From Minisyncoccia bacterium (GTDB lineage Bacteria > Patescibacteriota > Minisyncoccia > Phycocordibacterales > Phycocordibacteraceae): 64,000 nucleotides of DNA. The translations under genes were made by a program, and so were the position numbers. A model generated the notes under the pieces. It was not told the origin of the DNA. It was given only the letters and a program-made list of their open reading frames with translations, and did no database searches. Within the stretch, counting starts at the first letter, position 1; each line of letters opens with the position of its first letter. Shown in pieces: positions 820 through 33,283 of this stretch. The stretch is from positions 172,262-236,261 of the forward strand of contig JBEKII010000001.1 of assembly GCA_050011835.1 (NCBI GenBank), in the 5' to 3' direction.

Positions 820-1363
820 ATCCGAGACTCTCTCCAGCATACCGTGAATTGACGCTGTTCGGTACACTGACCATATAGTTAAGCTGGCACATTTGGTCCT
901 GCGATACGTCGAGATGTGCCATGAGATACTGCTGCGCTTCTTCGCGCGTCGTCCCAATCGGTTCCTGCAATAGCGTAATGTTAAAATATTGCGTTGCGCT
1001 GATATATTCAATGATATAAGGCGGATTGGCGGTTATCGTCGGATCTGGAACTCCCTCGTTCACATGATAACCGAGGTAATAATAACCGGAATTAATCGGA
1101 TCTTTTGCTGTCGTCGGATCCTTTAAGAAATTATTTGTTTGTACAGTTCCACCACCAGCGGTTGCGATAGGTACCGTTGTTCCTTGTGAAGAAGCCGTGA
1201 CCGTAGTAGTTGTTTGCCCAACCGATCCGGCTACCGGTAGTCCAACTTGTCCATTTTGAGAGTTACTTACTGGCGTTTTGTTATTACTCGCAAACCAGAA
1301 CGCGAGCGTAAAAAGCCCGATAAGTATTACTGCTCCTACTCCTATAAACCAGATTTTATTCAT
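782..1363 (-). CDS. hypothetical membrane-anchored/secreted protein
   Basis: N-terminal TM helix (IWFIGVGAVILIGLFTLAFWF), Thr/Gly-rich linker, no recognisable catalytic motif; convergent 38-nt overlap with miaA end. Confidence 0.4.
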   Translation of the reverse strand: MNKIWFIGVGAVILIGLFTLAFWFASNNKTPVSNSQNGQVGLPVAGSVGQTTTTVTASSQGTTVPIATAGGGTVQTNNFLKDPTTAKDPINSGYYYLGYHVNEGVPDPTITANPPYIIEYISATQYFNITLLQEPIGTTREEAQQYLMAHLDVSQDQMCQLNYMVSVPNSVNSRYAGESLGFSFCPGATVLPE

Positions 1364-2663: not shown

Positions 2664-5342
2664 TTATGCAATTTCCGCCACTTTTGCGTGCGTCACACGC
2701 GTGGTGCGCTTCTTCACATCAAATTGCGGTTCGCCGTTCTTGATAGAAATCGTCACAGTACCGCCTTCCGTCACGCCGCGGTCAACCATAAGCGAAGCGA
2801 GCGGCGTGAGTATTTTATCTTGAATCGTACGGCGGAGAGGGCGCGCGCCGTACTGCGGGTTATATCCCTTCTCTGCGAGCCATTCGCGCACTCCAGGCGC
2901 GAATGAAAGCGCGATTCGTTTTTGCGAAAGACGCTTTATGACCTCCTCAATTTGATTATCAACGATGCGAGCCAGCGCCTCCTTTGAAAGGACATCAAAG
3001 ATAATGATATCATCCAGCCGATTGAGGAACTCGGGACGGAAATGCTCCTTAAGCGCATCCATCACTTTCTCTTTCGTTTCTTCATAGCGGGATGCTTCGG
3101 TCGCATCGGCAGTGCCGAAGCCGATATGCGCGAGCCGGTCAATGAATTCTCCGCCAATATTGCTGGTCAACACGACAATCGTATTCTTAAAATTGACCTT
3201 GCGTCCCTTACTGTCCGTGAGATTGCCGGAATCCAGTACTTGCAAAAGGATATTGAACACTTCCGGATGCGCCTTTTCAATTTCGTCAAAGAGAACCACC
3301 GCATACGGGCGATGCCGGATGCGCTCGGTCAAAGTGCCGGCTTCCTCATAACCAACATAGCCCGGGGGCGCGCCGATGAGTTTGGCGACCGAATGCTTCT
3401 CCATAAACTCGCTCATATCCACGCGCACGAGCGCATCGTCATCATTAAACATAAATTCCGCGAGTTTTTTGGATAGTTCGGTTTTCCCCACGCCGGTAGG
3501 ACCGAGGAAAAGAAAAGAGCCGATGGGGCGGTTGGGGTCGCTGATGCCAACGCGCGAACGCTTTACGGCATCCGCAACTTTTTTCACCGCAATATCTTGG
3601 CCGATAATGCCGCGCTTGAGCGTCTCCTCCATGCGGCTTAACTTCGCGACTTCCTCTTCAAGCATGCGCGCGACGGGGATACCCGTCCAACGCGAGACGA
3701 CCGCCGCAATGTCCTGCTCGGCCACTTCTTCATTCAATACGCGCCGCGATTTCTGCAGCGTTTTAAGGCGCTTTAATTTCGTTTCCAAATCTTTCTGCAG
3801 ATGAGGAATCTTGCCATAGCGAATTTCCGCGACCGTACCGAGGTCGGCGGCAGCCTCGGCGTTGTCCGCCTGTATCTTCAACGCTTCCATCTCGGTCTTA
3901 TCGGAGCGAATGCCGACAAGCACTTCCTTCTCGTTTTTCCATTTAAGTTCAAGTTCGCTGGTCTTTTCCTTCAAATCGGCTACTTCTTTTTCAATGTCTT
4001 TAATGCGCTCTTTAATCTCTTTGCTGCGTTCACCCTCAAGGTCCTTCTGGAGCGCCTGCCGCTCAATTTCTAGGCGGCGAATCTTGCGGTCGGCCTCTTC
4101 AAGCAGAGGCGGTTTGTTTTCAAGCGCGATGCGCAGTCCCGATGCGGCCTCATCAATGAGGTCAATGGCTTTGTCTGGCAAAAATCGATCACTAATATAT
4201 CGCGAAGAGAGTTCAACGGCGGCAACGATGGCGCCATCGGTAATGCGCACGCCGTGGAAAAGTTCGTACTTGTCGCGCAGTCCGCGAAGAATGGCGATGC
4301 CGTCCTCAACCGAGGGCTCTTGAACGAACACCGACTGGAAGCGGCGCGTCAGCGCGGCATCCTTCTCAATATATTTCTGATATTCCTTCAGCGTCGTCGC
4401 ACCGATAACGCGAACTTCGCCGCGCGAAAGCGCGGGCTTCAGCATGTTTGACGCGTCCAGTGAACCCTCGGCGCCGCCGGCGCCCACCAACGTATGAAGT
4501 TCGTCCACAAAGAGAATGGCCTTCCCCTCCGCCCGCTCAACTTCTTTCATCACATTCTTCATCCGCTCTTCAAACTCGCCGCGGTATTTCGTGCCGGCAA
4601 TCATAAGCCCGAGGTCAAGAGAGAGGAGCTCCTTGCCTTTCAGTGATTCAGGAACATCATTCGCCGCCATGCGCGCCGCGAGACCTTCAGCGATTGCGGT
4701 TTTCCCGACGCCCGCCTCACCGATGAGAACCGGATTATTCTTGGTGCGGCGCGCGAGTATCTGGATGACCCGATTAATCTCACTGTCACGACCGATAACC
4801 GGATCAAGCTTATTTTCGGCGGCGAGCTTAGTAAGATTGCGCGAATACTTGGCAAGTGCACGAAACTGTCTCGGCTCCGCAGCCTGGCCGTCTTTAGAAT
4901 TTTTCAATTCCTTAAGGACGGCGGCGGCGGCTTGCTGGGTTATTGAAAAACGCGCAAAAATGTCCGCGGCCCCGCCCGGATGTTCAATAACGGCGAGAAA
5001 AAGATGTTCGGTGCCAATGAACGTGTCGTTCATGCGCGCCGCAATTTTCCCCGAGGCCTCAAGCGCCTGCGCGAGGTCGGGCGTGAGATAAATCTGATAG
5101 GCAGGCGAGAGTACTGTCGCGCTCTCGGGCGTCTCAAGATGCTCAAGCACGGCATCGGCAAGCATGTTGGTATCAATCTCCATGCGGTCAAGCATAGAGA
5201 AAACGAGTGATTCTTCCTGAAGTACAAGAGCGGCGAGCAAATGAAGCGGCGATACGTGATTCTGCCCGCGCTCTATCGCGAGCTCGTGCGCGCGGCGTAC
5301 GGCCTCTTTCGCTTTGGTAGTGAAATTGTTAAATGGAGGCAT
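2664..5342 (-). CDS. clpB: ATP-dependent chaperone ClpB
   Basis: Clp N domain, two AAA+ modules (GEAGVGKT and GPTGVGKT Walker A), long coiled-coil middle domain between them, 892 aa. Confidence 0.9.
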
Positions 5343-10112: not shown

Positions 10113-10763
10113 TTACCGCGGATCGGATTTCGGCCACTCAATGAGCGTGCCGGCTTTTGTTTCTATTGAATCGGCACGGCGGACGTAGCGCCAATTCCCT
10201 TTCGGCACGAGTTCATACTGCGGTAAGGCGTCCAGAGCATCGGCAATATTCCAGAGGTCATGTTCAGCCGTAATCCACGTGGTTCCGAAACGCCGCATAT
10301 CAAGCGGTTTTGAATAGAGTTCAAGCACTTTCTCTCCTGTTGAATTTATAAACCATTCGTGAAAATACGAAAGTGCGAGCTCGCGCGGCGTGCGATATAT
10401 CGGATCTCGGAACCGTAGGCACGCATGATTCGTCTTACTGATGGCGCCATAAAGACCGCTGCGCTTGTAGAGTGCGACCACATGGTCAAAGTCGCCGCGG
10501 CCCGGCCGCGGCGAAAGATTCATAATTACGGGCGGCTCGCCATTAATCCAGAGAGCGGCAGCCGCAAGAAGCGCGCCTTCAATACAGTGCGCCTTCTTCT
10601 TTCGTAAGACGCGACGCGGGGACATATGCGTATCGCCTTTCCTCTCCCAATTAAACGAAAGCGTGTCTAAAAAATTTTGTATCTTGATTGGCGTTGAGAG
10701 GCGCGCGAGCGTCTTATATTCGCGCAGTGTCAGTCCTGATGCCGCGCGCGCGAGGCGTTTCAT
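10113..10763 (-). CDS. hypothetical protein, possible transglutaminase-like/papain-fold cysteine hydrolase
   Basis: KKAHCIEGALLAAAAL (Cys), DFDHVVALY (His), later Asp; pattern only, weak. Confidence 0.3.
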   Translation of the reverse strand: MKRLARAASGLTLREYKTLARLSTPIKIQNFLDTLSFNWERKGDTHMSPRRVLRKKKAHCIEGALLAAAALWINGEPPVIMNLSPRPGRGDFDHVVALYKRSGLYGAISKTNHACLRFRDPIYRTPRELALSYFHEWFINSTGEKVLELYSKPLDMRRFGTTWITAEHDLWNIADALDALPQYELVPKGNWRYVRRADSIETKAGTLIEWPKSDPR

Positions 10764-10788
10764 ATGCTTCTAGCATACCGCACGCGAA

Positions 10789-11373
10789 CTATTTGAGTGC
10801 GAGACCGCCGTCACCCTTAACTATCGCCGTGAGGTCGGCTTGCGTCTTTGGGAGGTGGTTCGGGTTTGTGATATTGACAAAACCAACGACGCGCACATTA
10901 GTAGTGCAGACGCCGAGTACCGTACTGGCGTTTTCTATACCGTCCGCCATTGCGTAGTTTGTCGTCGTGCTGAAAAGAAGGTCAATGCGATCGGTGTAAC
11001 GTGCATTCATCGTGTCAGCGATGACGCGATAACCGACAAGCGGCTTCACAATACCGTAGCCGCACAAACCCCCCGAGACTGATGAGCTGTCAATTTCAAT
11101 AATAGTACCAAAAGGAAACTTGCTCGCGAGATTTTGCGAGCGCGCCGCGACGGTCTCCGGATTTGAATATGTGCCAGAGGCGGTTACAAAAGGATGGTCG
11201 CTTGTTTGTTCCGGAACGGCGTTATAGGCGGTAAGTGTTACCGCGTAACTCGGCAATGCCGGCGTAATGGGCGTGCTCGTTGAAGCGGGCGGCACAAGCG
11301 CGGCGCCTGAAAAAAGAAAAAACCCCATAAGGGTTCCAAGAATAGGCATAAAATAATTTAGCGAAATAGCCAA
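10789..11373 (-). CDS. secreted 3D-domain (MltA-like barrel) protein
   Basis: Signal/TM N-terminus; TAYNAVPEQTSDHPFVTASGTYSNPETVAARS matches the 3D domain signature. Confidence 0.55.
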   Translation of the reverse strand: MAISLNYFMPILGTLMGFFLFSGAALVPPASTSTPITPALPSYAVTLTAYNAVPEQTSDHPFVTASGTYSNPETVAARSQNLASKFPFGTIIEIDSSSVSGGLCGYGIVKPLVGYRVIADTMNARYTDRIDLLFSTTTNYAMADGIENASTVLGVCTTNVRVVGFVNITNPNHLPKTQADLTAIVKGDGGLALK

Positions 11374-11491
11374 TGGCTACCTCGCTTTTTAGATACTAGC
11401 ATATTGACAATATTCTGTCAATGGGTTGAAGAAATGAAAATCCCCGGTCGCAAGTGGCCGGGGATTTTGAGGGAAGTCTAATTTCTCTTCT

Positions 11492-12577
11492 CTACCAGAG
11501 CTCATACCCGGGCCACTCCCATGGCAGATGCGCGGTAGATGCTTTCTGATTATTAGGTGGCAGATTGGCCATAAATCTGTCTCCGTACGGACGATTACCG
11601 TCTGGAAACAAAATTACAACGTGGATTCTGCCGTCATCATTACGAAGTGAGTCAAAGGTCGCCCCGGTGACATTTTCCTTACATCGTCGGAGGAACCGAA
11701 GCGCCCCCAAATAAGCGAGCCCACTACTGGGACCAACGGTGATTCCCATCGTCCAATTGAACCACGAAGCTGCCAAATATGAAGGTCTCCTTTGAATTTC
11801 AATATAATCGTCCAGTGCTTCTCGCCAGGGCAAAGTAATTTCCTCCATGCGGTTGAGGTCTCTGACTCCGGGAATCTCTTGCCCCGAAGACAGAAGTACT
11901 CCCACAATTCTGATATTCTTTAGCTTTCTGCGAAGATATTCACTGACTCCAATCAGTGTCCCTCCTGTACCGATCCCGGCAACAAAGACCGCCGGCGGAT
12001 AAACGGCTCGATTCAAGATTCTTGGCGCAGTGAGTTCCGCATGTAATTCCGTGTTAGCTGGGTTGGCATACTGGTCAAGATTGAGAACGCCATTTTCGGC
12101 ATGCCAACCTTCGGCCTTCCATCCGCCACCTCCCAATTTTCTTGCTGTACCGATAACGCTCAAACCTTCTTCAGGAGGAATGATATCCGCCCCTGCCAGA
12201 AGGAGTGGGTATCTCTTCCCGTCCGGCAAGTCAGGCGCGACCACAAGCTTAACGTGCGGTATGCCGAACGACTTCGCCATAGCCGCGAGCACGACGCCAG
12301 TGTTACCGGATGTCGCCTCCACTAAGGTATGCACGCCCCGGAGCATTCCGGATCCCTCGGCTCTCAATAACATGCCATATACGGTGAGAAATTTTATATT
12401 CTCATACGGCAAATGAGACGCAAGCGCTACCGAAATGTCGACTCCGTCATCCTTAAAAGGATTCAATTTGTCTGAAATCGGAAAAACCGGCAACGGCCAA
12501 TTACGCCAGCACTTCAAGTAATGACTACGTTGTTCTTTCATCTCTTTCTCCTTTCCTTTCTGAGATTTAAAAAACAA
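11492..12577 (-). CDS. PLP-dependent (PALP fold) cysteine synthase/CBS-like enzyme
   Basis: VEATSGNTG, G-rich loops (GIGTGGT) typical of the tryptophan-synthase-beta/cysteine synthase fold. Confidence 0.6.
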   Translation of the reverse strand: MFFKSQKGKEKEMKEQRSHYLKCWRNWPLPVFPISDKLNPFKDDGVDISVALASHLPYENIKFLTVYGMLLRAEGSGMLRGVHTLVEATSGNTGVVLAAMAKSFGIPHVKLVVAPDLPDGKRYPLLLAGADIIPPEEGLSVIGTARKLGGGGWKAEGWHAENGVLNLDQYANPANTELHAELTAPRILNRAVYPPAVFVAGIGTGGTLIGVSEYLRRKLKNIRIVGVLLSSGQEIPGVRDLNRMEEITLPWREALDDYIEIQRRPSYLAASWFNWTMGITVGPSSGLAYLGALRFLRRCKENVTGATFDSLRNDDGRIHVVILFPDGNRPYGDRFMANLPPNNQKASTAHLPWEWPGYELW

Positions 12578-12634
12578 AATCGCCCATGAAGGGCTTCCGA
12601 GCGGAAGAGTACGCCGAATTATGACTTTTGCAAA

Positions 12635-13009
12635 CTACGTTGGTCGCCAGCCTTTTTCCACCTCGGTAATGCGATTTTTATCATCCATAAAAACAACCGT
12701 GGGACTTACCTTAAGCGCATCCTTTGAATCAACCCACGCCTCGCCAAGAATGACGACCTTGTCGCCTTTCTGGAAGAGTCGCGCCGGCGGACCGTTGAGA
12801 ATGATGTCTCCCTTCCCTTTCTTGCTTTTTATAATATAGGTGCGCCAGAGAACAGCATTTGACACATTCGTAATCTGCACCATCTGCCCCGGCAAGAGCC
12901 CGGCCGCCTCAAGCAGGGTTTCATCTATCGTGATGGAGCCGACATAGTTGAGGTCAGCGTCGGTTACCGTCGCCCGATGTAATTTCGCGATACAAACATT
13001 TATCAACAT
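12635..13009 (-). CDS. panD: aspartate 1-decarboxylase
   Basis: MLINVCIAKLHRATVTDADLNYVGSITIDE...; conserved KLHRATVT and GSITID (pyruvoyl Ser) motifs; start at internal Met of the ORF. Confidence 0.8.
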   Translation of the reverse strand: MLINVCIAKLHRATVTDADLNYVGSITIDETLLEAAGLLPGQMVQITNVSNAVLWRTYIIKSKKGKGDIILNGPPARLFQKGDKVVILGEAWVDSKDALKVSPTVVFMDDKNRITEVEKGWRPT

Positions 13010-13057
13010 ACGAGAAGTATAGCATATGTGCGTTGCCACTCTCACTATGCTGTATAA

Positions 13058-14260
13058 ATGGTATTGTTAAAAGAATTTGATATGAATCTTTCTTTCTTGG
13101 TAAACATTGTTGCACTGCTCTTTTCTTTTTTCGTCATCGGAGCGGTGCTCGGCGCCGTTTTCTCTAAGCCAGTACGAAAAAAACTCGTTGCATTCTTACG
13201 CTTTGAGTATCTTCCGCGCCTCTTGCTCAATAAATCCTCGTGCAATCCAATCATCAAGCCGGGAACTCATCCTTGGACTGCAGAAGCGGTCATGAATCCG
13301 GCGGCGATTGTCCTTGATGACCGAACCCATCTCGTCTTCCGCGCGATCGGCATGGATGGCGTATCGCGACTCGGTTATGCCAGTAGCGCGAACGGTATCG
13401 TTTTTGACAAGCAATTGCCGTACCCTATCTACATCGCACAAAGCCCCCGGAGGATTCCAAGTTACCGGCGCCGATTCTCACCAGTCATGTATCCTTCAGG
13501 CGGCAGCTGGGGTGGATGTGAGGACCCACGCATGGTTGTCATAGAAGGGCGCGTGTATATCACCTTTAATATGTTTGATGGTTGGGATTTCATCCGTGTC
13601 TCCACGATCTCAATTGCAGAAAATGACTTTATGACTGAACGATTTTGGAAATGGGACGGTCCGTATCTCCTCTCGCCGCCACGACAAATCCATAAAAATT
13701 GGGTTCTCTTCCCAGAAAAAATTAGTGGGAGATTCGCCATTCTCCATAGCATTGCTCCCGAAATAGAAATCGCTTATCGCGATTCAATTGAGGATATCGG
13801 CACAGAAGAACCTTTCATTGAAAGCTGGGTCGGGGCGCGCTTCGATCTTCCGGAGCGAGAAAATACCTGGGACAGTTTCGTCCGAAATCCTGGGCCCCCG
13901 CCGATACGGACCGACCGTGGATGGCTTCTTTTTTATCACGCGTTTCATAAATCCGACCGAGAGGCATCAATCGGATATCGTATTGGCGCAATGCTTCTCG
14001 ACTTCGCTGACCCGACCAAAGTACTCTATCGCTCTGCCGCACCCGTCATTTCGCCTGAAGAAAATTACGAAAATCATGGCAATAAGTTCGGCGTCGTCTA
14101 CGCATGCGGCGCGGTCGTCCGTGATGGCACGCTCTTTGTTTATTACGGCGGTTCTGATAAAGTCGTGTGCGTTGCGACCGCGCCCTTAGATGCTTTCCTC
14201 GATGCGCTCGCTGCGGGCAGCCAACCGCGGCTGAATGAGCAAAATGCCCAAACTCCCTGA
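13058..14260 (+). CDS. GH130-family glycoside phosphorylase (mannoside-phosphorylase-like), membrane-anchored
   Basis: N-terminal TM; NPAAI, GCEDPRMV, and C-terminal YACGAVVRDGTLFVYYGGSDK motifs of the GH130/DUF377 5-bladed propeller family. Confidence 0.7.
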   Translation: MVLLKEFDMNLSFLVNIVALLFSFFVIGAVLGAVFSKPVRKKLVAFLRFEYLPRLLLNKSSCNPIIKPGTHPWTAEAVMNPAAIVLDDRTHLVFRAIGMDGVSRLGYASSANGIVFDKQLPYPIYIAQSPRRIPSYRRRFSPVMYPSGGSWGGCEDPRMVVIEGRVYITFNMFDGWDFIRVSTISIAENDFMTERFWKWDGPYLLSPPRQIHKNWVLFPEKISGRFAILHSIAPEIEIAYRDSIEDIGTEEPFIESWVGARFDLPERENTWDSFVRNPGPPPIRTDRGWLLFYHAFHKSDREASIGYRIGAMLLDFADPTKVLYRSAAPVISPEENYENHGNKFGVVYACGAVVRDGTLFVYYGGSDKVVCVATAPLDAFLDALAAGSQPRLNEQNAQTP

Positions 14261-15278
14261 CGTGACGCAAGAATCCAGAGCATATATTCAACACATTGGG
14301 AAAGTCATCGAAAATGATGCCCGTTTTAAGTATGTTATGGCCTTAACGCTTAATCCGCGTTCTGGAAACCGGGAAGGGGTCATCAGATGTATTACGAGCA
14401 GAAAAGGGAAAGAAGGCGTCGCTGGTCAAATTGACAGAAGCGTATTGCATAAAGTGAAAGGCAAATCCCTCGAGCACTTTGAGATCGGAGAAAAAATTCG
14501 CATCAAGCTTCAGGAAAAGATTATTAAAAAGTTTTCTAGGAAAAATATTGATTTCTTAGGACTGGAGGATCCAGATATTTGGGTTGATGAAAAGACAAAT
14601 CTCATACATTTATATTTCACTATACCTTTAATCGCTAAGAAGAAGACATGGATTCATCTCGGCCATGCTTTTGGAAAAGATTTGGATAATCTGAATATGA
14701 CAATGCCAGTGTTAATGGCGGGTAGGAGAGGAGGTGCAAAAGAAGTTAGTATTGCGCCGCTAAATAAAAAAGGATCGAGATACAATCTTGTTGAATCCTC
14801 GGACAAAATAAAAGATACCTATTTCTCAGTTGTTCGAACAGCTATCGCTAGAGATATGGGCAAACCTTGGAAATTTGGAAAAATAGTTTTTCATCCCGGG
14901 AGACAATCTGCTCGCTGGATTGCCGGACATGCGTCGCCCGGGCCATTTCTTCCTAGTACATTTATCGATATCGGTCCCGGTAGACGAGTAGGGATCATGA
15001 ACGGGTGTGGGGCTAATAAAATAATCGGAGGGGAAACAAAGTATGGGACTTTCTCGATCGGTCTCTTTATATACGATTATGAAAAAGGAAAAATCGATTG
15101 GGTTTCTCCGAAACCTTTTATCCAAGATAGCCAGGCAGGCAAGGTGAGAGCCATTACGTTTGCGAGCCAATTTGTGGAAACGAATCCGGGCAAAGGAATT
15201 CTTTATGCACATGTCAATGACTCTTTTGTACGCGCATATACGTTGTATGCTGAAGGCATTCAAGCGTTGCTTCCTTAA
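14235..15278 (+). CDS. divergent GH130-like beta-propeller protein
   Basis: GLEDPDIW aligns with GCEDPR box; C-terminal ...ILYAHVNDSFV like GH130 end; Lys-rich and AT-richer than neighbours; 26-nt overlap with upstream gene. Confidence 0.45.
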   Translation: MSKMPKLPDVTQESRAYIQHIGKVIENDARFKYVMALTLNPRSGNREGVIRCITSRKGKEGVAGQIDRSVLHKVKGKSLEHFEIGEKIRIKLQEKIIKKFSRKNIDFLGLEDPDIWVDEKTNLIHLYFTIPLIAKKKTWIHLGHAFGKDLDNLNMTMPVLMAGRRGGAKEVSIAPLNKKGSRYNLVESSDKIKDTYFSVVRTAIARDMGKPWKFGKIVFHPGRQSARWIAGHASPGPFLPSTFIDIGPGRRVGIMNGCGANKIIGGETKYGTFSIGLFIYDYEKGKIDWVSPKPFIQDSQAGKVRAITFASQFVETNPGKGILYAHVNDSFVRAYTLYAEGIQALLP

Positions 15279-15283
15279 TTATT

Positions 15284-17200
15284 ATGTTCGTCATCCGCCG
15301 AGAACCAAGTAATCCCATCCTCGCGCCACAACGCGAACGGCCGTGGGAATCGGTCGCAACGTATAACCCTTCTGCGGTTCGTACTCCCGAAGGTGTGCGG
15401 CTTTTTTATCGCGCGCTTGGGAATCCCAATGTGCTTCAAACGCCGACCGCTGAATTATCAAGTATCGGCACAGCTTTTGCTGAAGACGGCGTTCATTTCC
15501 ATTCGCGCCAACAGGTAATTATTCCAGAGGAATCGTGGGATGTGTTTGGGTGCGAAGACCCGCGCGTTACCTTTTTTGAAGGAAAATGGTACTGCTTCTA
15601 TACCGCGCTCGGCGGCTACCCTTTCGGTCCCGATAATATCAAAGTCGCTCTCGCTATCGGCGACACACCGGACCATTTTACAGAGCGCCACCTCATCACG
15701 CCATTTAATGCAAAAGCAGCGACGCTTTTCCCCGAACGCATTGATGGCGATATCGTGCTCCTTTTAACCACACATACCGACTGGACTCAAGAATATCCGC
15801 GACCAACTATCGCGCTTGCGCACGCGAGGCGAATAGAAGATTTTTTTGATACCGATTATTGGCACCGCTGGCATGACCATCTTGCCGATCATGCAATTCA
15901 TGAACTGCGCCGCGATGACGGCGACCATGTTGAAGTCGGCGCATCGCCTTTATTGACCGAAGACGGCTGGTTACTTATCTATTCTTATATCCAGAATTAC
16001 TATGACGAGCAAAAACGCATTTTTTCAATTGAAGCCGCGCTTCTCAACCGCGATAATCCGCAAAAGCTTATCTCGCGTACCGAGTCCTTTCTCGTACCAC
16101 AAGAGTTTTACGAGGAATACGGCCTCGTACCGCATATCGTCTTCCCCACGAGCGTAACAGTAACTAACGATACCTGCCTTGAAATTTGGTATGGCGCGGC
16201 CGATACTGTTTGCGCCAAGGCGAACGTGAAGCTTCCCGACCTTCTGCGCGCGCTTGACCCCGAACGGCCAGCGCGGACTTTCACACGCGCCGCGAACAAT
16301 CCCATCCTCGCGCCTCGCGGTGAAGGATTTGAAAATCGTGAAGTGATAAACGCCGCCGCTGTTGAGCTTAATGGCTTGATATACCTTCTCTACCGCGCGA
16401 TGGACGCCGCCAGTACTTCCACCATCGGGCTTGCGACCTCAAAAGACGGACTCACCATTGACGAGCGGCTGCCCGAACCTATTTATATCCCGCGCCAGGA
16501 ATTCGAAAAGAAACACGGAAGCCCTACCGGCAATTCTGGGTGCGAAGACCCGCGTATCGTGCGCATCGGCGACACGCTCCATATGACATACACCGCATAC
16601 GACGGCGTCCATGCGCCTGCAGGGGCGATCTCGTCAATCGGCGTTGACGACTTCCTCGCGCGGCAATGGCAGAAGTGGAACGCGCCTTTCATCCTGACGC
16701 CAGAAGGCGTCGACGATAAAGACCTCGCGCTTCTGCCTGAAAAAATCGGCGGGAATTACCTGCTTTACCATCGCATTAATAATCAAATCTGCGCCGACCT
16801 CTTGCCTGACCTCGTCTCGGGTAAACGCGCGAGCCGCGGCATAAAAATTATAGGGCCGCGCCTCGGCATGTGGGACGGCGCCAAGGTCGGCAGTACGGCA
16901 CCGCCGATTAAAGTCGGTGACAAATGGCTGATGATCTACCATGGCATCTCACGCCACGCGACGTATCGTCTCGGCGCCGCACTTCTCGGCGCTGACGGAC
17001 TCACGGTCCTTGCGCGCACCGCCGACCCAATCTTTGAACCATTGGAGAAATACGAGAAAGAAGGCGCCGTTCCGAATGTTGTCTTCTCTTGCGGCATCGT
17101 AGTGCGCGATGACACCGTCTTCCTTTATTACGGCGGCGCCGATAAAGTCCTCGGCGTCGCAACCGCCTCGCTCGCTCATATCGTTGACGCGCTTTCTTAA
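15284..17200 (+). CDS. tandem-duplicated GH130-family glycoside phosphorylase (two GH130 domains)
   Basis: Two repeats each with NPILAP... and GCEDPR(V/I) boxes and ...VVFSCGIVVRDDTVFLYYGGADKV end. Confidence 0.7.
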   Translation: MFVIRREPSNPILAPQRERPWESVATYNPSAVRTPEGVRLFYRALGNPNVLQTPTAELSSIGTAFAEDGVHFHSRQQVIIPEESWDVFGCEDPRVTFFEGKWYCFYTALGGYPFGPDNIKVALAIGDTPDHFTERHLITPFNAKAATLFPERIDGDIVLLLTTHTDWTQEYPRPTIALAHARRIEDFFDTDYWHRWHDHLADHAIHELRRDDGDHVEVGASPLLTEDGWLLIYSYIQNYYDEQKRIFSIEAALLNRDNPQKLISRTESFLVPQEFYEEYGLVPHIVFPTSVTVTNDTCLEIWYGAADTVCAKANVKLPDLLRALDPERPARTFTRAANNPILAPRGEGFENREVINAAAVELNGLIYLLYRAMDAASTSTIGLATSKDGLTIDERLPEPIYIPRQEFEKKHGSPTGNSGCEDPRIVRIGDTLHMTYTAYDGVHAPAGAISSIGVDDFLARQWQKWNAPFILTPEGVDDKDLALLPEKIGGNYLLYHRINNQICADLLPDLVSGKRASRGIKIIGPRLGMWDGAKVGSTAPPIKVGDKWLMIYHGISRHATYRLGAALLGADGLTVLARTADPIFEPLEKYEKEGAVPNVVFSCGIVVRDDTVFLYYGGADKVLGVATASLAHIVDALS

Positions 17201-27720: not shown

Positions 27721-28321
27721 TTTTATTGTTTTATAAAAATCGTCTCCATTATTAATTAAGTTTTACTAACACAGCAGACAATAAAGAAATGAGCTGTCAA
27801 ACTCTCCCGTAAGTCTACTCCCCTGCTATAAGCCGTCAATCCACTTGACAACTATCAATATTTTCGTTTCTGTTATCAAATTATCTCTCAAATGTCCCCC
27901 ATCCGTGGAGCCCAAAATATTTCAGCCGACAGCGAGTAATTTCGATGGTGAGCGATGGCCGTTAATGATGCGTACCTTCCCGGAAGAAACATGAAAATGG
28001 TCAGCAATAATCGCGACGATACGACGATTCGCCAGATTTTGAGCTGGCTTTTCCTTAACAGAGATTTCAAAGTGATCGGGAGAAATCATTTTTAACGATT
28101 CCTTCTTTGCGGCCGCCCGAACCAGGACTTTTACATACATGCAGGTACGGTACCATGGCGGGTTCAAATATCCTCCATCCGGCGGAGCTAAAGTTCTGAA
28201 CGTGTCCTGAAAAAAATGTCCTGCGATGGCAAACGGCACGTGTACGTGTATATAGTAGAATACTTCCGGAATATAAATCAGCTCTTCCGTCGTTAAACCA
28301 TACTCTGAAAGGGGGAATGAG

Positions 28322-28546
28322 ATGAAAATACTGACTGCATTGTTCATTGCGATTGCGATTTTCACTCTGCCGCTCAACGAATGGGAAAAGGCCTCCGAAC
28401 AGGAGAGAACCGATGTCTGTGAGAGAATGTTTAGAAGTTTCAAAGCGGACAATCCCTCATGCCTGAGAGTGAGGATCGGCACCCTCATCATCGGAAACGA
28501 GCTGAAGGTGCTCATCGAATGCGTGGAAAGCGGAACAGGAATATGA
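28322..28546 (+). CDS. hypothetical small secreted protein
   Basis: GGGGGA RBS 8 nt before ATG; N-terminal signal-like helix; 74 aa. Confidence 0.35.
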   Translation: MKILTALFIAIAIFTLPLNEWEKASEQERTDVCERMFRSFKADNPSCLRVRIGTLIIGNELKVLIECVESGTGI

Positions 28547-28735
28547 CGATCATACCCGTACCTCCGAACCCCAGTCCGTGGACGTAGTGGTGGATACGGT
28601 AAAGAGAAAGGTGAGAGGGTTCGGAGGAAGCACCAACCGCTCATCTTTTTCACCGCCCGGAGAGCGTGGACCCGTAATGGTTATGCATGCCGATGGGGTA
28701 TGTTGCAAATAGCCAAGACACGAAAAACTTCTACG

Positions 28736-28804
28736 CCGCATGATTCGCTCTGCGGTTTTTCTTTTTATACAAAACACATTCGAATATAGTCCAGTCAGCG
28801 GAAG
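28736..28804 (+). repeat. junction element copy 1
   Basis: CCGCA..TGCGG hairpin + TTTTTCTTTTTAT + TTCGAATATAGTCCAGTCAGCGGAAG. Confidence 0.55.
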
Positions 28805-28903
28805 TTTTTATTGTTATTGACCGATGACTGCGAGAAAGCTAACATCAGCAGCGGAACTTTGCTGTTCCTTATTAAACTCAAGAGGGGAAGGGGGGTGAGG
28901 AAG

Positions 28904-29593
28904 ATGAACAAAATCAGCCGCAGAGCTATTCTGGAAATCGCGAAGACGCTTGTTGGCAGTATCATCAACAAGGTTCCTATTCAACAACAAGTTGTCCAAA
29001 AACTTTCCAACATTCTGGGAGTCCAGAGATGTGTGATCTTCAGAGTCGGCAATCATCGCGAAGGTGATGACTACGACGTTGAAATCACGGCTGGCGTGCC
29101 CATTGAAGAACACGGCATCGGCCTCAAGGAGTCCGTCACAAAACATCCAGACATCGAAGCAGCCGTTCGTCTCGGTAAAGTGATGGTTATTGCCGATCCC
29201 AAAACATCATCGATGACTGTTCATCTCAGAGGGATCATCGAAAAGAAAAACATCACACAGATCCTGTATCTGCCGCTTATTTCTTCCGGAGTAAAAGTCA
29301 AGACCATCGGTGTAATAGTGCTTGACGATGCGGGGGAGAAAGATAATTTTGAGCCGGAAGAGATAGAATTTTGCGGTGAGGTCGGCGAGCTTATATCGCT
29401 TACTATGGATCGCGAGGAAATCCTGATTCAACAGATGAGAGATATCATCATAAACCGTGTTGCCGCGTTAGGCGGATTTACGAGCCGATTGGACAAATCC
29501 ACAGAAGAATTCTCTAAGGGCGTCAAGAACATCCTGGAAGAAATTCGCATGCTTGAGGAGAGCTGTCCGAAAGGAGGCAGAATTAATTTTTAA
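28904..29593 (+). CDS. GAF-like domain protein with C-terminal helical tail
   Basis: Start at internal Met after GAGGAAG; GAF-like core (..QRCVIFRVGN...LYLPLISSGVKVKTIGVIVLDD..). Confidence 0.45.
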   Translation: MNKISRRAILEIAKTLVGSIINKVPIQQQVVQKLSNILGVQRCVIFRVGNHREGDDYDVEITAGVPIEEHGIGLKESVTKHPDIEAAVRLGKVMVIADPKTSSMTVHLRGIIEKKNITQILYLPLISSGVKVKTIGVIVLDDAGEKDNFEPEEIEFCGEVGELISLTMDREEILIQQMRDIIINRVAALGGFTSRLDKSTEEFSKGVKNILEEIRMLEESCPKGGRINF

Positions 29594-29617
29594 CATGCTC
29601 TAAAAAGGAGAAGGGCG

Positions 29618-29821
29618 ATGAAAAATTTAATTGTGCTGATATTAATGATAGGTTTGGCAGGTCTGAGTTTGGTTGCTTGTGCAGCTTGTGCAAATATCTC
29701 CTTAAAGATTTATCATCCAATCGCTGGATCATTGCCACCAAATGTCGGCTACAATGACTGCAGCGCATCTGAGATGTGGAAGTGTTACTATCCACCTGGA
29801 ATCGTGATCGCAGTATGGTGA
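29618..29821 (+). CDS. small Cys-rich putative lipoprotein
   Basis: AGGAGA RBS; signal peptide with lipobox-like SLVAC; 5 Cys in 45-aa mature part. Confidence 0.45.
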   Translation: MKNLIVLILMIGLAGLSLVACAACANISLKIYHPIAGSLPPNVGYNDCSASEMWKCYYPPGIVIAVW

Positions 29822-30063
29822 GGCTTTGGGCACCTGATCGAACAAGAAACACGATTGAGTGCCCTTTTTATTTAGGTCATAAATCGCTGATGCGTTTGAA
29901 GCCCGAGATACCTTTATTTCGTCTCAAAACTTAGGTTCTAACGTCGACCGATATACAGAGCAAAAAATTGACAGTATTTTTATATCGTGATATACAAGAA
30001 GACAGACCGCGACTCAGGCTCATTTGTACAAATTCATTCCAAACTGATTCAAGGAGGTATGCC

Positions 30064-30375
30064 ATGCTTAAAGCAATTGCAACCACGCCCTGGTACTTCC
30101 GCTTCTTACCAAACTTCTTCTGGATGAAACCGTTCGTCGAGAAAGTCCGGATCGTGGACATGGCGAAGCGCGATCTCCAGCCGATTTCATCAGGTGATCG
30201 GCAGCGATATACCAGTTCGTACGCATATGCTGTCTGGGTCAAGACAAGTCACGGCAACCTTTACCTGGAGGTATCGAAAGAGGTCTATCACCGCTTAAGG
30301 CGGAACGACCAGTTAATTGTTCGCTACCAATGTGGTCGCCGAACGGAGAGACTCAGAGGTCATATCGCGCGTTAA
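30064..30375 (+). CDS. hypothetical protein (103 aa)
   Basis: Strong AAGGAGG RBS 6 nt upstream of ATG 30064. Confidence 0.4.
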   Translation: MLKAIATTPWYFRFLPNFFWMKPFVEKVRIVDMAKRDLQPISSGDRQRYTSSYAYAVWVKTSHGNLYLEVSKEVYHRLRRNDQLIVRYQCGRRTERLRGHIAR

Positions 30376-30422
30376 CCGCTACCTCGATGAGACAGGAAGC
30401 TAAACTTCTATCTCATGACAGA

Positions 30423-30493
30423 GGGGCGGTTTTCTGTTTCTACACATTCTACACAAAACATATTTGAACATCTTCCAGCCAGCGGAGCTGACA
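30423..30493 (+). repeat. junction element copy A
   Basis: GGGGCGGTTTTCTGTTTC...TTTGAACATCTTCCAGCCAGCGGAGCTGACA. Confidence 0.55.
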
Positions 30494-30521
30494 GTTCATA
30501 AAATCTATGGTATATTAGGAA

Positions 30522-30752
30522 ATGATGAGAACACGGGATTTTGATAAAGAGCGCAGTGAGCAGTCACATTCACTCGCTGACTTTTTGAATGTCTATAACG
30601 AGAACCTTTCTCCCGCCTTTCCTCGGGCGTCAATTGCCTTGCTTAAAGAATTTAAGAACACTCATCAGAATCTCTTTAAGTCGAATGGGGTGTGGTCGTT
30701 GGACCTTCACCGGAAAAAGGTCATGGATTGGCTACATCCTCGCTCAACATAG
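30522..30752 (+). CDS. hypothetical protein (76 aa)
   Basis: ORF only; preferred over overlapping 30589-30936 ORF whose product is low-complexity. Confidence 0.25.
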   Translation: MMRTRDFDKERSEQSHSLADFLNVYNENLSPAFPRASIALLKEFKNTHQNLFKSNGVWSLDLHRKKVMDWLHPRST

Positions 30753-30799
30753 TTCGAACTGTCCCGACCGCGCTAGCGGAGACCAACTTTCTGGTCTGA

Positions 30800-30910
30800 C
30801 CGCCACACTTGAGGAATCCGCCTACCTGGGCCATATTTCCTCAGTGGGCGGTTTTCTCTTTTCATACCGAATAGGTTTGAACATCCTCTATCCAGCGGCA
30901 ACTCTAACGC
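30800..30910 (+). repeat. junction element copy B
   Basis: CCGCCACACTTGAGG...CCTCAGTGGGCGG hairpin + TTTTCTCTTTTC + GGTTTGAACATCCTCTATCCAGCGGCAACTCTAAC; right end overlaps RelE 3' end. Confidence 0.55.
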
Positions 30911-31182
30911 TTCCCCATTTCCTTGTAGACCACTGAACGATGAAGAATGGCGAGTATGAGAACCTTGGTTCCTGCGATACGAAAAACAACGCGATAGTCG
31001 CCAATACGAAGCTTGCGGTATCCTTTTAGGGAGCGCCGCAGGGGTTTGCCATAAAGATCGGGGTAGGAAGAGAGTTTCTCTTCGATAGCGGCTTGTATTT
31101 TAACTCTCCAAGCAGATGTGAGTTGCGGGATGTCTTCCTCGACGACTTTCTGCTGATAGATAACCTCAAAATCTAGCGCCAT
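30904..31182 (-). CDS. type II toxin, RelE/ParE family
   Basis: LRIGDYRVVFRIAGTKVLILAILHR C-terminal signature; 92 aa. Confidence 0.75.
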   Translation of the reverse strand: MALDFEVIYQQKVVEEDIPQLTSAWRVKIQAAIEEKLSSYPDLYGKPLRRSLKGYRKLRIGDYRVVFRIAGTKVLILAILHRSVVYKEMGKR

Positions 31183-31394
31183 GCCAGGGAGTGAGGAAGG
31201 AATGAAGTTTTGCCCACATCACGCTTTCTGGCAATTTCATCAAGAACCTGATCTTCTTCAATCTCAAGAGCTATCCGAAGAAGGTGTTCGGCCTTCGTTG
31301 CCTGAGGAACTTGGTCGCGTTTAGCGAGTTTGCCGAGCAAATCATCTAGATCTTTGGAAACACTAATATTAATGCGTTTTTTGGTGGTGGCCAT
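31173..31394 (-). CDS. antitoxin, ribbon-helix-helix (CopG-like) family
   Basis: MATTKKRINISVSKDLDDLL RHH N-terminus; stop overlaps RelE start by 10 nt; ORF could also open at TTG 31412. Confidence 0.6.
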   Translation of the reverse strand: MATTKKRINISVSKDLDDLLGKLAKRDQVPQATKAEHLLRIALEIEEDQVLDEIARKRDVGKTSFLPHSLAWR

Positions 31395-31878
31395 ATGAAT
31401 AGAGTGTATCAAAAGTGTATCTATGTCGTCAATAGTATTAGGGTGAACAAGTGCACATCGTGAACATTACACAATCATCAAGAATGCTAACTTCCCTACC
31501 CTACATAGGTTCGAGCATCCTCTAGCCAGCGGAACTGACATTTTTATAGTTTGTGATAAAATTAAAGCTAGACAGAACATTCCAAAAAGAAAGGGAGGGG
31601 TCCATTATGAGTCATGAGATCAGGATTGTGTCGGCGTACAATGGACGACTGCACGAATCAACCATTCACAGGGCCGAGGTGCTCATTGGCATCGAGGTAG
31701 ACAGTAAGGTAGTTTTATTTCAACAATGAGGAGGCGAGAAGGCACGGAGTGACCTATGAATATGAAAAAGGTCGAGAGACGATAATTCGGGCGAAGTTCT
31801 AACATTAATTAACTCCTCGAATTCTGTGTCTACGTGGCAGAGATTACTGCGACGAACTCATTAAAGGAGGTGGTCCCT

Positions 31879-32223
31879 GTGGGCAGTGGCAATGTTGTTG
31901 CCAAAAAGTATTCCTCTAACACATTGGTGGTCCATTGGACTCTCGGTTCTTCCCTCCGTTTTGCTTGGGATGAGGGCGAAAACAAGTGGCGCTGTGTTTC
32001 GAGTTATAAGCTTATATCCTGCAACGCAGACCCCGCATTGAAGGTACTTGAATTCACAGCAGCCCCAATTCCTGACCGCTGTTACACTCCTGAGGAAGCT
32101 AAATCTCTAGCCCAAAGGCCGAGCCGATGGAAAAAGAGTATCAACGACCCATCAATTGACATTGATGACCTGGTACTGGAAGTTATGAGGTCACGAGGTG
32201 TCAAAGTAGAATGTCTCTACTGA
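31879..32223 (+). CDS. hypothetical protein (114 aa, GTG start)
   Basis: AAGGAGG RBS 7 nt before GTG 31879; followed by strong terminator. Confidence 0.4.
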   Translation: MGSGNVVAKKYSSNTLVVHWTLGSSLRFAWDEGENKWRCVSSYKLISCNADPALKVLEFTAAPIPDRCYTPEEAKSLAQRPSRWKKSINDPSIDIDDLVLEVMRSRGVKVECLY

Positions 32224-32226
32224 CTA

Positions 32227-32313
32227 CCGCCCACGAAAGCCGGATGGCTCTCGTGGGCGGTTTCTGTTTTTTATACTAAAGTTCAAACATCCTCTATCCA
32301 GCTCAACTGACCC
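32227..32313 (+). repeat. junction element copy C (includes rho-independent terminator 32227-32274)
   Basis: CCGCCCACGA-loop-TCGTGGGCGG + TTTCTGTTTTTTAT, then GTTCAAACATCCTCTATCCAGCTCAACTGACCC. Confidence 0.6.
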
Positions 32314-32578
32314 AATTCCCTCTCAACCTGTGCCCAATTGAGAGTTCTGAACTCATCCAGCCAGCGGAGCTACAACGTCACCGTTGAGGATTATTACTTA
32401 CACCCCACATGTTATAGCTTTTTGACTCGGTATTATTCCGGTCGTCTCATCTATACCAAAAATAAAAGCGGAGTATTCCGGATATAATTTATATAGGATT
32501 AACCCCGCCCTGACTATGAAGAAAAAACACTGGTTCAAGAAAAAATTCCTTGAGAAAAGTTTTAAACGCGGAGCTGAT

Positions 32579-33283
32579 ATGAAATTCGGAGACGTACCGA
32601 ATACGGGAGCTCCTTACACCCGCATTATCTCCGGGATTCGACCCTCGTTCTCGAGGAACAGAGATACCGTTATTGTTACCATCTACAGGGCACTACAGAA
32701 GGATCCAAAACAAGACCTTTACTACGTGATTGCTATCGACCGACGACGGTGCACGTATGTAGAGGAAGTGGAATTCAGTGCAGACCATATACAACGCATG
32801 CATTCTGACGAAATCAGCATGGATTTGGAAAGCGAATATAATGGGTTCTCTCGCCTACTGAGTGATGCGATACCCACCGAATTTTCGAGACCCTCATTTA
32901 CTTTCCATCGCAAAGACGGCAATCGGTTTTTGACCCCGCTCGGAGTACGGCGCGTATCCGGTTTATTTACTAAGGGACTGATAGTCTTGCCTTCAGATTT
33001 TAACGATTCTCACACCAGAGAGGAGATAAATCTTCTCCGGCAAGAGATGGATGCATATCCGAAAGATCCTATTGGCAGTACTCTATTCGCATTAACACTT
33101 GCCTTGGTGGCTGAAGTTGGCCTTACGCGCCAAAAGATTCTTATTCCTGAGAAATCTAAGCCAACACCGACACCAGGAACACATCCTGTCTTGACTGGAG
33201 GAAGGAATTTTGAAGAGAGCCCCGAAGGTCAGGAGATGCGGAAATTATTGGCCCAGTCAATGGCGTATTACAAAAAACATTGA
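32579..33283 (+). CDS. hypothetical protein (about 235 aa)
   Basis: GGAG 5 nt before ATG 32579 (ORF opens at 32516). Confidence 0.35.
   Translation: MKFGDVPNTGAPYTRIISGIRPSFSRNRDTVIVTIYRALQKDPKQDLYYVIAIDRRRCTYVEEVEFSADHIQRMHSDEISMDLESEYNGFSRLLSDAIPTEFSRPSFTFHRKDGNRFLTPLGVRRVSGLFTKGLIVLPSDFNDSHTREEINLLRQEMDAYPKDPIGSTLFALTLALVAEVGLTRQKILIPEKSKPTPTPGTHPVLTGGRNFEESPEGQEMRKLLAQSMAYYKKH

Follow-up and report, generated by a model that had tools for sequence, protein, structure and literature searches.

The DNA considered here, the window, is a stretch of 64,000 nucleotides (nt) and an ordinary chromosome segment of a bacterium of the Candidate Phyla Radiation (CPR; 277-kb JGI contig Ga0427919_0000068), with rpoB/C, rpoD, dnaG and hisS in the vicinity. 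An earlier annotation made from the letters alone, which we call the sequence-only reading, had correctly guessed at a CPR source, which NCBI names as a Minisyncoccia bacterium, and had pointed to a repeated composite element made of a hairpin, a T-run and a conserved right half. Here, we describe this element from profile searches, folding predictions and comparison with other CPR genomes. The composite is the boundary of small gene cassettes, as seen from its anatomy, its sharp right edge, the co-orientation of its copies, its linkage to tRNA-Asn and the mixed accessory genes that it separates.

The family is defined by a 27-nt core, of which eight copies, six of them clear, one weak and one doubtful, lie between 28.16 and 32.37 kb of the window, all on the plus strand. 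That the repetition is real, as the sequence-only reading had claimed, is confirmed by the pattern GTTYRAACATCCTCTATCCAGC, which with at most 3 mismatches has four matches in the window against 0.00 expected by chance, and a repeat finder returned a six-copy family, on the plus strand only, at 28163-32367, with no member in the remaining 59 kb of the 64 kb. The cores in the window were placed with a profile built from all copies (nhmmer), and their mismatches are counted against the CPR-wide consensus, GTTCGAACATCCTCYAKCCAGCGGAGC; promoters and terminators are called throughout from consensus matches and folding predictions. The GC content of the array region is 46-47%, compared with about 50-56% across most other parts of the window.

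The left edge of the array is formed by a DUF167 (PF02594-like) gene on the minus strand (27922-28140), the start codon of which (ATG, 28138-28140) lies 21 nt from the first core. BLASTP against a homologue of 72 amino acids (aa) at another CPR locus, L015, aligns from residue 70 of the 141-aa open reading frame (ORF), and the public call (27922-28347(-), 141 aa, or 197 aa in another sample) is thus over-extended across the first core. Members of the same gene family are found a few genes from tRNA-Asn at L015, L065 and L072. Core copy 1, GTTCAAATATCCTCCATCCGGCGGAGC (28162-28188, 3 mismatches, E=1.5e-9), has no hairpin and is followed by cassette 1, which holds a 68-aa ORF of no family (28340-28546(+), in the gene calls and the ORF list) and ends in a weak terminator-like hairpin with T-run (28735-28767(+), -9.1 kcal/mol, z -2.2). 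Copy 2 (28778-28804) is degenerate, with 7 mismatches (E=1.5e-4), and precedes TTGACC-17-TAACAT at 28817-28845. Cassette 2 (28904-29821(+)) encodes a GAF-domain protein (28904-29593, Pfam GAF 6e-11) and a 67-aa ORF (29618-29821), and closes with a terminator hairpin and T-run at 29828-29869(+) (-15.7 kcal/mol, z -4.6). Where the sequence-only reading had placed a further copy of the composite, at 29828-29946, this terminator is a good one; the core-like part, at 29935-29961(+), is possible but not certain, because only 16 of its 27 positions match by hand count. This strongly degenerate copy 3 ends in GAGC and was missed by nhmmer, but its position and flanks fit the pattern, with TTGACA-17-TATACA starting 7 nt beyond it.

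Cassette 3 consists of a 103-aa ORF of no family (30064-30375(+), gene calls), terminated by a long imperfect hairpin (30374-30431) and T-run (30374-30442(+), -24.6 kcal/mol, z -4.9). Copy 4, ATTTGAACATCTTCCAGCCAGCGGAGC (30462-30488, 3 mismatches, E=2.6e-11), runs into a promoter-like CTGACA-17-TATATT (30488-30516(+)) that begins at the last base of the core and would serve a 76-aa ORF (30522-30752); the terminator of this fourth cassette is again a long hairpin (30798-30853) with T-run (30798-30864(+), -31.1 kcal/mol, z -5.2). Directly 3' of the stop of the 76-aa ORF and 47 nt before that hairpin lies GTTCGAACTGTCCCGACCGCGCTAGCGGAGACC (30752-30790(+)), which carries both end motifs of the core (GTTCGAAC ... 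GCGGAG) around a different middle, and which may be another decayed core or chance. In copy 5, GTTTGAACATCCTCTATCCAGCGGCAA (30875-30901, 4 mismatches, E=2e-10), the right end is altered, and the stop codon of a reversed ParE gene follows 3 nt on. Cassette 5 (30904-31394(-)) is this ParE toxin (30904-31182) with its RHH antitoxin (31173-31394), both assigned by Pfam and under their own promoter (31432-31403). Copy 6, GTTCGAGCATCCTCTAGCCAGCGGAAC (31509-31535, 2 mismatches, E=1.2e-12), is the second core without a hairpin, because the ParE/RHH cassette to its left is reversed, so that a promoter and not a 3' end faces the core. A promoter-like CTGACA-16-TAAAAT (31535-31562(+)) would serve the 40-aa and 129-aa ORFs of cassette 6 (31607-31729 and 31834-32223), which ends in a hairpin (32226-32261) with T-run (32226-32272(+), -30.4 kcal/mol, z -7.2). 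Copy 7, GTTCAAACATCCTCTATCCAGCTCAAC (32281-32307, 4 mismatches, E=6e-8), and the weak, indel-shifted copy 8, GTTCTGAACTCATCCAGCCAGCGGAGC (32344-32370, in the repeat-finder family, nhmmer E=0.015), enclose an empty cassette, the gap being only 36 nt. The last cassette ORF, of 255 aa (32516-33283(+)), is an ORFan whose only hit among 5.8 billion proteins is itself, and inspection of the sequence downstream of it gave no further core.

A hairpin with T-run thus precedes five of the window copies. In form these are predicted intrinsic (rho-independent) terminators, a G+C-rich hairpin followed by a U-run at the 3' end of a gene, which agrees with how the sequence-only reading took the left half of the element; the three long ones are predicted to be particularly stable (z -4.9 to -7.2), with a U-run after each. 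The same reading held that the three full-length copies align almost base for base. This is so for about 50 nt, over the T-run and core, but not for the whole 70-110 nt, as the hairpins are alike at their ends only (ACCGC...GGGCGG) and differ in their interiors. The palindrome GAGTTCTGAACTC that it reported in the copy at 32342 is indeed one of 6+1+6. On the other hand, GTTCAAAC and GTTTGAAC, which it had taken as a meaningful reverse-complement pair, are each one transition away from the consensus palindrome GTTCGAAC (CpG to TpG or CpA), and the motif that it wrote as GTTYRAAC is this same GTTCGAAC, the T-loop-like part of a tRNA-Asn-like sequence discussed below. The supposed echo of the element, GCGGAGCTGA at 32568, lies inside the ORF called from 32516 and is at chance level (15 occurrences of GCGGAGC in the window, 14.6 being expected); as separate words, neither GTTCGAAC nor GCGGAGC is enriched in the window.

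Searching one genome per species with the exact degenerate core pattern returned 20 loci, about 11 of which are labelled Paceibacterota, Parcubacteria, Nomurabacteria, Kaiserbacteria, Paceibacteria or Saccharibacteria; here and below, other genomes were read as pieces of 8-20 kb, and the taxon labels are those deposited with the metagenome-assembled genomes. These 11 or so loci share the full composite of hairpin, T-run, TATAC..ACAGG, core and variable sequence, while the others, found mostly within the coding regions of unrelated bacteria, look like chance matches or convergence. A metagenome scan with the exact pattern gave 21 further stretches. As a profile search revealed, the exact matches belong to arrays, with eight copies in 8 kb at L017, seven at L022 and five at L024/L031, and the non-redundant total, window included, is 70 copies at 24 loci, spaced 198-2894 bp apart (median 770 bp). 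The element is therefore not confined to the genome of the window. At none of the 24 loci are copies found on both strands; the cores of a locus are co-oriented whatever the orientation of the neighbouring genes, which varies (taking the largest ORF of each cassette, 36 are co-oriented with the core and 10 reversed). IMG/VR viral contigs, searched with two patterns, and phage and plasmid collections held no match to the core, and on these negatives and the ordinary chromosomal setting of the window we rejected a phage or plasmid origin.

The right half of the element is nearly invariant across CPR lineages and in this sense conserved beyond what a promoter needs, as had been proposed. Over G TTCGAACATCCTCYAKCCAGCGGAGC (positions 0 to +26) the information is 0.6-2.0 bits per position and at least 1.2 at most of them, figures that are inflated at positions 1-23 because the loci were recruited with an exact pattern spanning these, whereas positions 0 and 24-26 and the further copies within arrays were not so selected. 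The right edge is abrupt, with at most 0.4 bits at the first base past GGAGC; on the left, conservation decays gradually through ACAGG, TATAC and the T-run. A T-run is present in 42 of the 70 copies, mostly behind a strong hairpin, and it tracks the orientation of the upstream gene: among 55 copies it occurs in 31 of 41 with a co-oriented upstream gene and in 6 of 14 otherwise (p=0.045). The hairpin is therefore best read as the putative terminator of that gene. A few hairpin types recur on different cassettes and in distant genomes, such as L015 and L017 (90% over 80 nt) or L006 and three L017 cassettes (82-86%), from which it follows that hairpin and core move, or get copied, as one module. 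What comes after the core is variable. A sigma-70-like -35/-10 pair starts -5 to +12 nt from the core end in 15 of 70 copies under strict criteria, compared with 0 of 70 in an upstream control; elsewhere the core is followed by the terminator of a reversed gene, by a pseudo-tRNA unit (see below) or by another core 36-240 nt on. The core thus behaves as a boundary and not as part of a promoter.

In itself the core has little symmetry, the 8-bp palindrome GTTCGAAC being its only dyad. A fold as a T-arm or minihelix was considered and dropped, since at best 3-4 weak pairs form and these are not conserved, as was a 5' partner complementary to CCAGCGGAGC, in the manner of R'' to R', which is seen at L036 and L015 but is not general. 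Rfam gave no match to any core at E<=1 in the window from 27 to 34 kb, nor one at gathering score in the window or the other loci, and ARAGORN called no tRNA at the cores, so that we rejected the core being a tRNA or another known RNA. At L008 (Nomurabacteria), a LOOT RNA (Rfam RF03000, 73.6 bits, 2978-3094(+)) lies 2.5 kb upstream of a solitary core.

Several arrays begin at a tRNA gene, and the identity of that gene is constant. At six independent loci (L006, L015, L021, L022, L026 and L036, the last also given as L036/L037) a tRNA-Asn(GTT) gene lies directly upstream of the array in the same orientation, and the tRNA is Asn in all six. At L006, L022 and L026 ARAGORN was blank and Rfam reported a group I intron; read by sequence, these are tRNA-Asn genes that ARAGORN missed because the intron interrupts the anticodon loop. 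Including two loci considered below, the intron-split genes are at L006:6925-7220(-), L022:7010-7640(-), L026:11190-11480(-), L065:9480-9900(+) and L067:9934-10625(+). Split tRNA-Asn genes with introns and HNH genes are known in Patescibacteria (PMC13011429). In our loci a small HNH endonuclease gene lies within the intron (L022, L067), after the tRNA-Asn (L006, L065) or before it (L015).

The core itself resembles the start of the T-arm plus the 3' strand of the acceptor of tRNA-Asn, with GTTCGAAC as the T-loop-like part. Its alignment scores with the 3' ends of tRNA-Asn are 23-31, against 14-19 for Trp, Gly and Ile tRNAs taken from the same data, and a score of 31 was not attained in any of 5000 shuffles. 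Core and tRNA agree over CAGGTTCGA, ATCCT and CC.GCGGAGC, so that 23 of the 25 aligned bases are identical, while the core has five extra bases. However, it is not a copy of any resident tRNA-Asn end: it keeps its own consensus, constant in genomes labelled as different CPR groups, while the resident 3' ends differ. At L015 the tRNA-Asn is intact, the first cassette starts 5 nt past its ...GGAGCA with TTGACA, and a full core closes that cassette on its far side. Such a layout fits a crossover at the extreme 3' end of the tRNA, in the shared CGGAGC/GCGGAGC, and not one in the T-loop, by which the tRNA would have been broken. Diverged core-like sequences were also seen 3' of tRNA-Asn in other lineages, namely AGTTCCGAACTTCATCCATTGCCCGGAGC and AGTTACGAACACCACCCATTGCCCGGAGC at L068 (10924-10952 and 15559-15587(+)), each with cassette-like ORFs after it, and AGGTTCGAAACTCGTCCAGCACGCGACGCTC at L072 (11124-11154(+)), which is followed by TTGACA and a cassette-like ORF. 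Judging from such sequences, the core family probably extends beyond what the strict consensus captures.

Exact 12-16-nt copies of the 3' end of the resident tRNA-Asn occur near the tRNA in relatives and are absent from the window. Modules begin immediately after such copies, and the same module is found in different left-hand contexts. Additional tRNA-Asn loci, reached through the intron-associated HNH family, contributed junction comparisons of this kind and no perfect cores. An HNH module starts right after TACCCGCGGAGC, behind the tRNA at L006 and behind a short unit at L065, the two copies sharing 84% protein identity. Similarly, a mini-module beginning CGAGTGA has the same start point in three settings, behind the tRNA at L072, behind a pseudo-tRNA unit at L006 and behind a further unit at L026, and a module of terminator plus pseudo-tRNA follows the tRNA at L022 and type-1 cores at L006, L021 and L036. 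Because the same modules stand behind different partners, the left-hand side of the ...GCGGAGC junction can be taken equally by the tRNA 3' end, by its local copies or by the core. This comparison, which comes from relatives and not from the window, is the strongest indication of a recombination that would be specific for the junction.

Two kinds of small unit accompany these junctions. The first is a pseudo-tRNA-Asn-like unit of 120-145 nt, which lies within arrays on the same strand as the cores and is absent from the window (L006:3271-3416(-), L021:4265-4394(+), L021:5514-5643(+), L022:6841-6963(-), L036:2036-2160(-), L030:42-188(+), L021:6372-6450(+) and L032:2071-2205(-)). It has an acceptor-like stem, GCTCCGCGG/CCGCGGAGC, that matches the resident tRNA, and a T-stem-like CAGGA/TCCTG that closes three hairpins. 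Over five copies, both partners are changed in 19 of 43 pairs, compared with 8.2+/-2.1 for shuffles and 2-5 for slid controls, and no Rfam family matched; the unit could be a small RNA, or else a substrate for recombination as a folded single strand. The second kind is a gene-less mini-module of about 75-95 nt (L026:10990-11185(-), L065:9900-9975(+), L072:10570-10645(+), L006:3190-3270(-)), composed of a two-way terminator and ...GCAAGC..TGCTTACCCGCGGAGC, its end being a copy of the local tRNA-Asn 3' end. Mini-modules start right after a preceding ...GGAGC and form a tandem stack between the tRNA and the first cassette. At L036, a 45-nt segment, TTTAGCTATAGTTAGTAATCTAAAAAAGTTCG(A/G)ATC.., is present twice, immediately 3' of the tRNA-Asn and once more past the last core (2945-2995(-) and 1300-1350(-)); this duplicate brackets the entire two-cassette array, as a single crossover would leave it.

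The cargo of the cassettes is mixed and mostly unfamiliar. Of 47 cassette ORFs, about a quarter to a third have a recognised Pfam family and the rest none, and the families include ParE, zeta toxin/AAA_33, methyltransferase, histidine kinase, GAF, NYN, trypsin-like protease, ice-binding-like and nucleotidyltransferase domains. Neither an integrase nor a fragment of one is present among the 47. The window ParE/RHH pair, with its promoter and operator region (30904-31432(-)), has relatives of 78-80% nucleotide identity in other CPR genomes, which stand in unrelated neighbourhoods, beside gapdh, an SLT gene, MacB or tRNA-Ile; ParE homologues (65-89% identity) are in other contexts and have no cores.

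Taken together, these observations lead us to a reading that we give about an even chance of being right: the core would be a recombination site that the cassettes carry and that imitates the tRNA-Asn 3' end, in an integron-like array whose enzyme is encoded elsewhere. A recombination site was also among the possibilities raised by the sequence-only reading. Each unit would consist of its own promoter, one or more ORFs, a terminator and a core; the hairpin and T-run would be the intrinsic terminator of the left-hand cassette, and GTTCGAACATCCTCYAKCCAGCGGAGC, with the weaker TATAC..ACAGG lead-in, the attachment site. Units would join by recombination at or just inside the common ...GCGGAGC, with two possible partners, another core or the genuine 3' end of tRNA-Asn, the latter serving as primary site where the array begins. 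The outcome would be a same-strand array 3' of tRNA-Asn, comparable to the stacking of integron cassettes at attI. The site-specific joining, the enzyme responsible and a possible excision of cassettes as circles are what we infer beyond the boundary itself.

How does this arrangement relate to known systems? It shares with integron arrays, sedentary chromosomal integrons and clusters of attC sites lacking integron-integrases (CALINs) the small and mostly co-oriented cassettes of about 0.4-1.5 kb, the ORFans and toxin-antitoxin genes, the site at each cassette end pointing in one direction, the hairpin as part of a 3' module, and a conservation on the left side of the presumed crossover that ends where the next cassette starts. 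In contrast to integrons, no intI was found beside the array, which is headed by a tRNA-Asn gene instead of attI, the cassettes have their own predicted promoter and terminator instead of being generally promoterless under a common Pc promoter, and the site is common to genomes labelled as different CPR groups instead of being species-specific. Nor is the core an attC site: it is a conserved sequence lacking the R''-L''/L'-R' imperfect inverted repeat and any inverted-repeat partner, its GTTCGAA does not fit GTTRRRY, and it is conserved for 23 nt past GTT, compared with about 7 nt in attC. We therefore rejected a classical integron, given the lack of intI, of attC-type inverted repeats and of GTTRRRY, and the cassettes with their own promoters.

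Another likeness is to tRNA-anchored islands such as the tycheposons of Prochlorococcus, which have a full tRNA at one end, scattered partial-tRNA-like direct repeats and flexible genes (bioRxiv 10.1101/2020.12.28.424599); in such islands, which also occur in streamlined genomes, newer arrivals displace older ones away from the tRNA (bioRxiv 10.1101/2020.12.28.424599). However, tycheposons span many kilobases and carry integrase and replication genes, whereas the units here are of about 0.8 kb and have neither, and the core differs from their repeats in not being a copy of the resident tRNA end, having a distinct consensus that is 5 nt longer. The promoter-early stem-loop (PeSL) cassettes of T4-type phages were reportedly proposed, by Arbiol and co-workers in 2010, to drive modular shuffling. 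Like these, our element is a composite of stem-loop and promoter repeated between small ORFs of no known function in a hyperplastic region; unlike PeSLs, which belong to phage genomes and act through homology, it is in a bacterial chromosome and has an extra 27-nt tRNA-like core outside the promoter. Other integrase-less, site-bounded modules that are mobilised in trans and often carry toxin-antitoxin genes are the cis-mobilisable elements (CIMEs) next to integrative and conjugative elements and the Xer-dependent dif modules. The cassettes resemble both in being integrase-less and bounded by putative recombination sites, but inspection of the consensus gave no 11-6-11 layout as in dif and no dyad symmetry between the halves of the core, the sites are direct and not alternating, and a helper element is not in view. 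Repetitive extragenic palindromes (REP) and the bacterial interspersed mosaic elements (BIMEs) of the same type, miniature inverted-repeat transposable elements (MITEs) and Correia repeats differ in that the copies here are clustered and co-oriented instead of scattered over the genome, and in that the core is non-palindromic save for one 8-mer.

A number of findings weigh against a tRNA-Asn-mimicking recombination site, in addition to the inflation of the conservation figures mentioned above. The precomputed Pfam annotation of the window from 3 to 61 kb contains no Phage_integrase or other recombinase gene, which leaves none within about 25-30 kb of the array, and no recombinase recurs beside the arrays of other loci or ranks among the 25 families listed for 146 ORFs, a list that would not show single weaker hits. 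Nothing is conserved to the right of GGAGC, where a classical double-stranded tyrosine-recombinase site needs a second arm. We saw no presence/absence polymorphism of cassettes, the window array being identical across five samples. Flanking cores were not found at the ParE/RHH relatives elsewhere in CPR genomes; this pair therefore moves by another route too. A homologous cassette gene at L028:1118-1569 and L046:979-1425 (76% nucleotide identity) has opposite orientations relative to the cores, which simple site-specific transfer of cassettes does not predict. Finally, of the loci that extend far enough upstream, about half, the window included, have no tRNA-Asn beside the first core: it is missing in the window, L008, L029, L030 and L045, and the window as a whole contains no tRNA-Asn and no group I intron, a tRNA-Trp at 2405 being its sole tRNA.

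Could the units be exchanged without any dedicated recombinase? In that case the hairpin-core module, of about 50-100 nt, would be a homology block that supports RecA-type exchange after DNA uptake, with tRNA-Asn as the universal left anchor. Such a mechanism would do without the recombinase that was not found, it would allow the L028/L046 gene to sit in either orientation relative to the cores, and it would account for the 45-nt duplication on both sides of the L036 array as the result of a single crossover; the sharing of whole hairpin types between distant genomes also means that identity extends beyond the 27-nt core. It is harder to reconcile with a core that is far more conserved than the T-run and lead-in and that ends abruptly past GGAGC, which suggests recognition of a specific sequence, or with the many cores that have no hairpin, where only about 30-45 nt of homology are left. 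Likeness to the tRNA-Asn 3' end and modules that start at the identical base past GCGGAGC are, moreover, typical of att-type junctions. We consider exchange by homology alone rather unlikely as the full explanation.

Alternatively, the cores may be scars only, that is, fossil partial-tRNA repeats from larger elements that targeted tRNA-Asn (prophages, plasmids or tycheposon-like elements) and have since been deleted to remnants, with no present role for cassettes. The tRNA-Asn gene is a hotspot for flexible genes even without cores, as seen in one Giovannonibacteria population (L056-L064, no cores), where a strain-variable type I restriction-modification island lies 3' of the tRNA-Asn/HNH locus at about 10400-16400, is replaced by an SMC/AAA_15 gene at L059, and several contigs break just past the tRNA. 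At L067, on a 528-kb CPR contig, a 578-aa large serine recombinase (Resolvase, Recombinase and Zn_ribbon_recom domains; 10467-12203(-)) abuts the 3' end of an intron-containing tRNA-Asn and is followed by small unknown genes, in what looks like an element integrated at the tRNA-Asn hotspot. It is the only recombinase seen near any tRNA-Asn locus, and the one other lead is an IS200-like Y1 transposase gene at L036:13-687, two genes beyond the 45-nt duplicate. Both the island and the serine recombinase element speak for the scar explanation, as do the exact 12-16-nt local copies of the tRNA-Asn 3' end in the same regions, which are classical att duplications, and the degeneracy of all window cores. 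Yet scars would hardly keep one consensus, with the same five extra bases, where resident tRNA-Asn 3' ends differ; the units are regular and complete, with promoter, ORF, terminator and core at a median of 770 bp; and the 47 cassette ORFs include no integrase fragments. For these reasons we regard this explanation as decidedly doubtful.

Least probable of all is that the core is a regulatory site, an operator or activator element for a conserved DNA-binding protein of CPR bacteria (for example a silencer of acquired genes), within a unit of terminator, operator and promoter, since the sigma-70-like -35 found 0-12 nt past the core of co-oriented cassettes, sometimes overlapping it as GGAGCTGACA, and the 8-bp palindrome GTTCGAAC inside the core are set against a core-to--35 distance that is not fixed (-5 to +12), many cores that precede reversed-gene terminators, pseudo-tRNA units or another core (36-240 nt), a core direction that is constant per locus regardless of neighbouring genes, the lack of dyad symmetry beyond the 8-mer, and a resemblance and physical link to tRNA-Asn that would be left unexplained. 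The dimeric-regulator site that the sequence-only reading had offered beside its recombinase site fits poorly for the same reasons, the variable distance and the many cores with no promoter after them.

Where does the array in the window stand if the core is a recombination site that mimics tRNA-Asn? Every clear core there has 2-7 mismatches to the consensus, and TTCGAA and GCGGAGC are never both intact. As its cores are degenerate and the tRNA-Asn is missing, the array is probably old, with its tRNA anchor lost, decaying and no longer active. Its predicted terminators and promoters may still serve its genes.

In a wider sense, we tentatively propose, with somewhat less than even confidence, that the arrays represent an undescribed gene-capture platform of CPR bacteria, analogous to integrons and unrelated to them. 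The 3' end of tRNA-Asn would be the primary site, the mini-cassettes would each carry the 27-nt site, and a trans-acting recombinase would stack and exchange them within and between distant lineages, with the pseudo-tRNA-Asn units as possible landing pads or folded substrates. Our literature searches found no paper with the motif string or a description of such arrays. CPR bacteria, or Patescibacteria, have tiny genomes and depend on hosts, and how they acquire and exchange genes is little understood. If the proposal is true, a cassette junction at tRNA-Asn would be a place where they keep and trade accessory genes, among them toxins, kinases, surface and signalling proteins and ORFans, and would be a second, independent solution to the integron problem, with a tRNA gene instead of attI and intI. 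If the exchange is instead driven by homology, the element would be a clear bacterial counterpart of the PeSL idea from phages. As a sequence handle, the 27-nt core would allow such genes to be retrieved from metagenomes and would make horizontal transfer in CPR bacteria testable.

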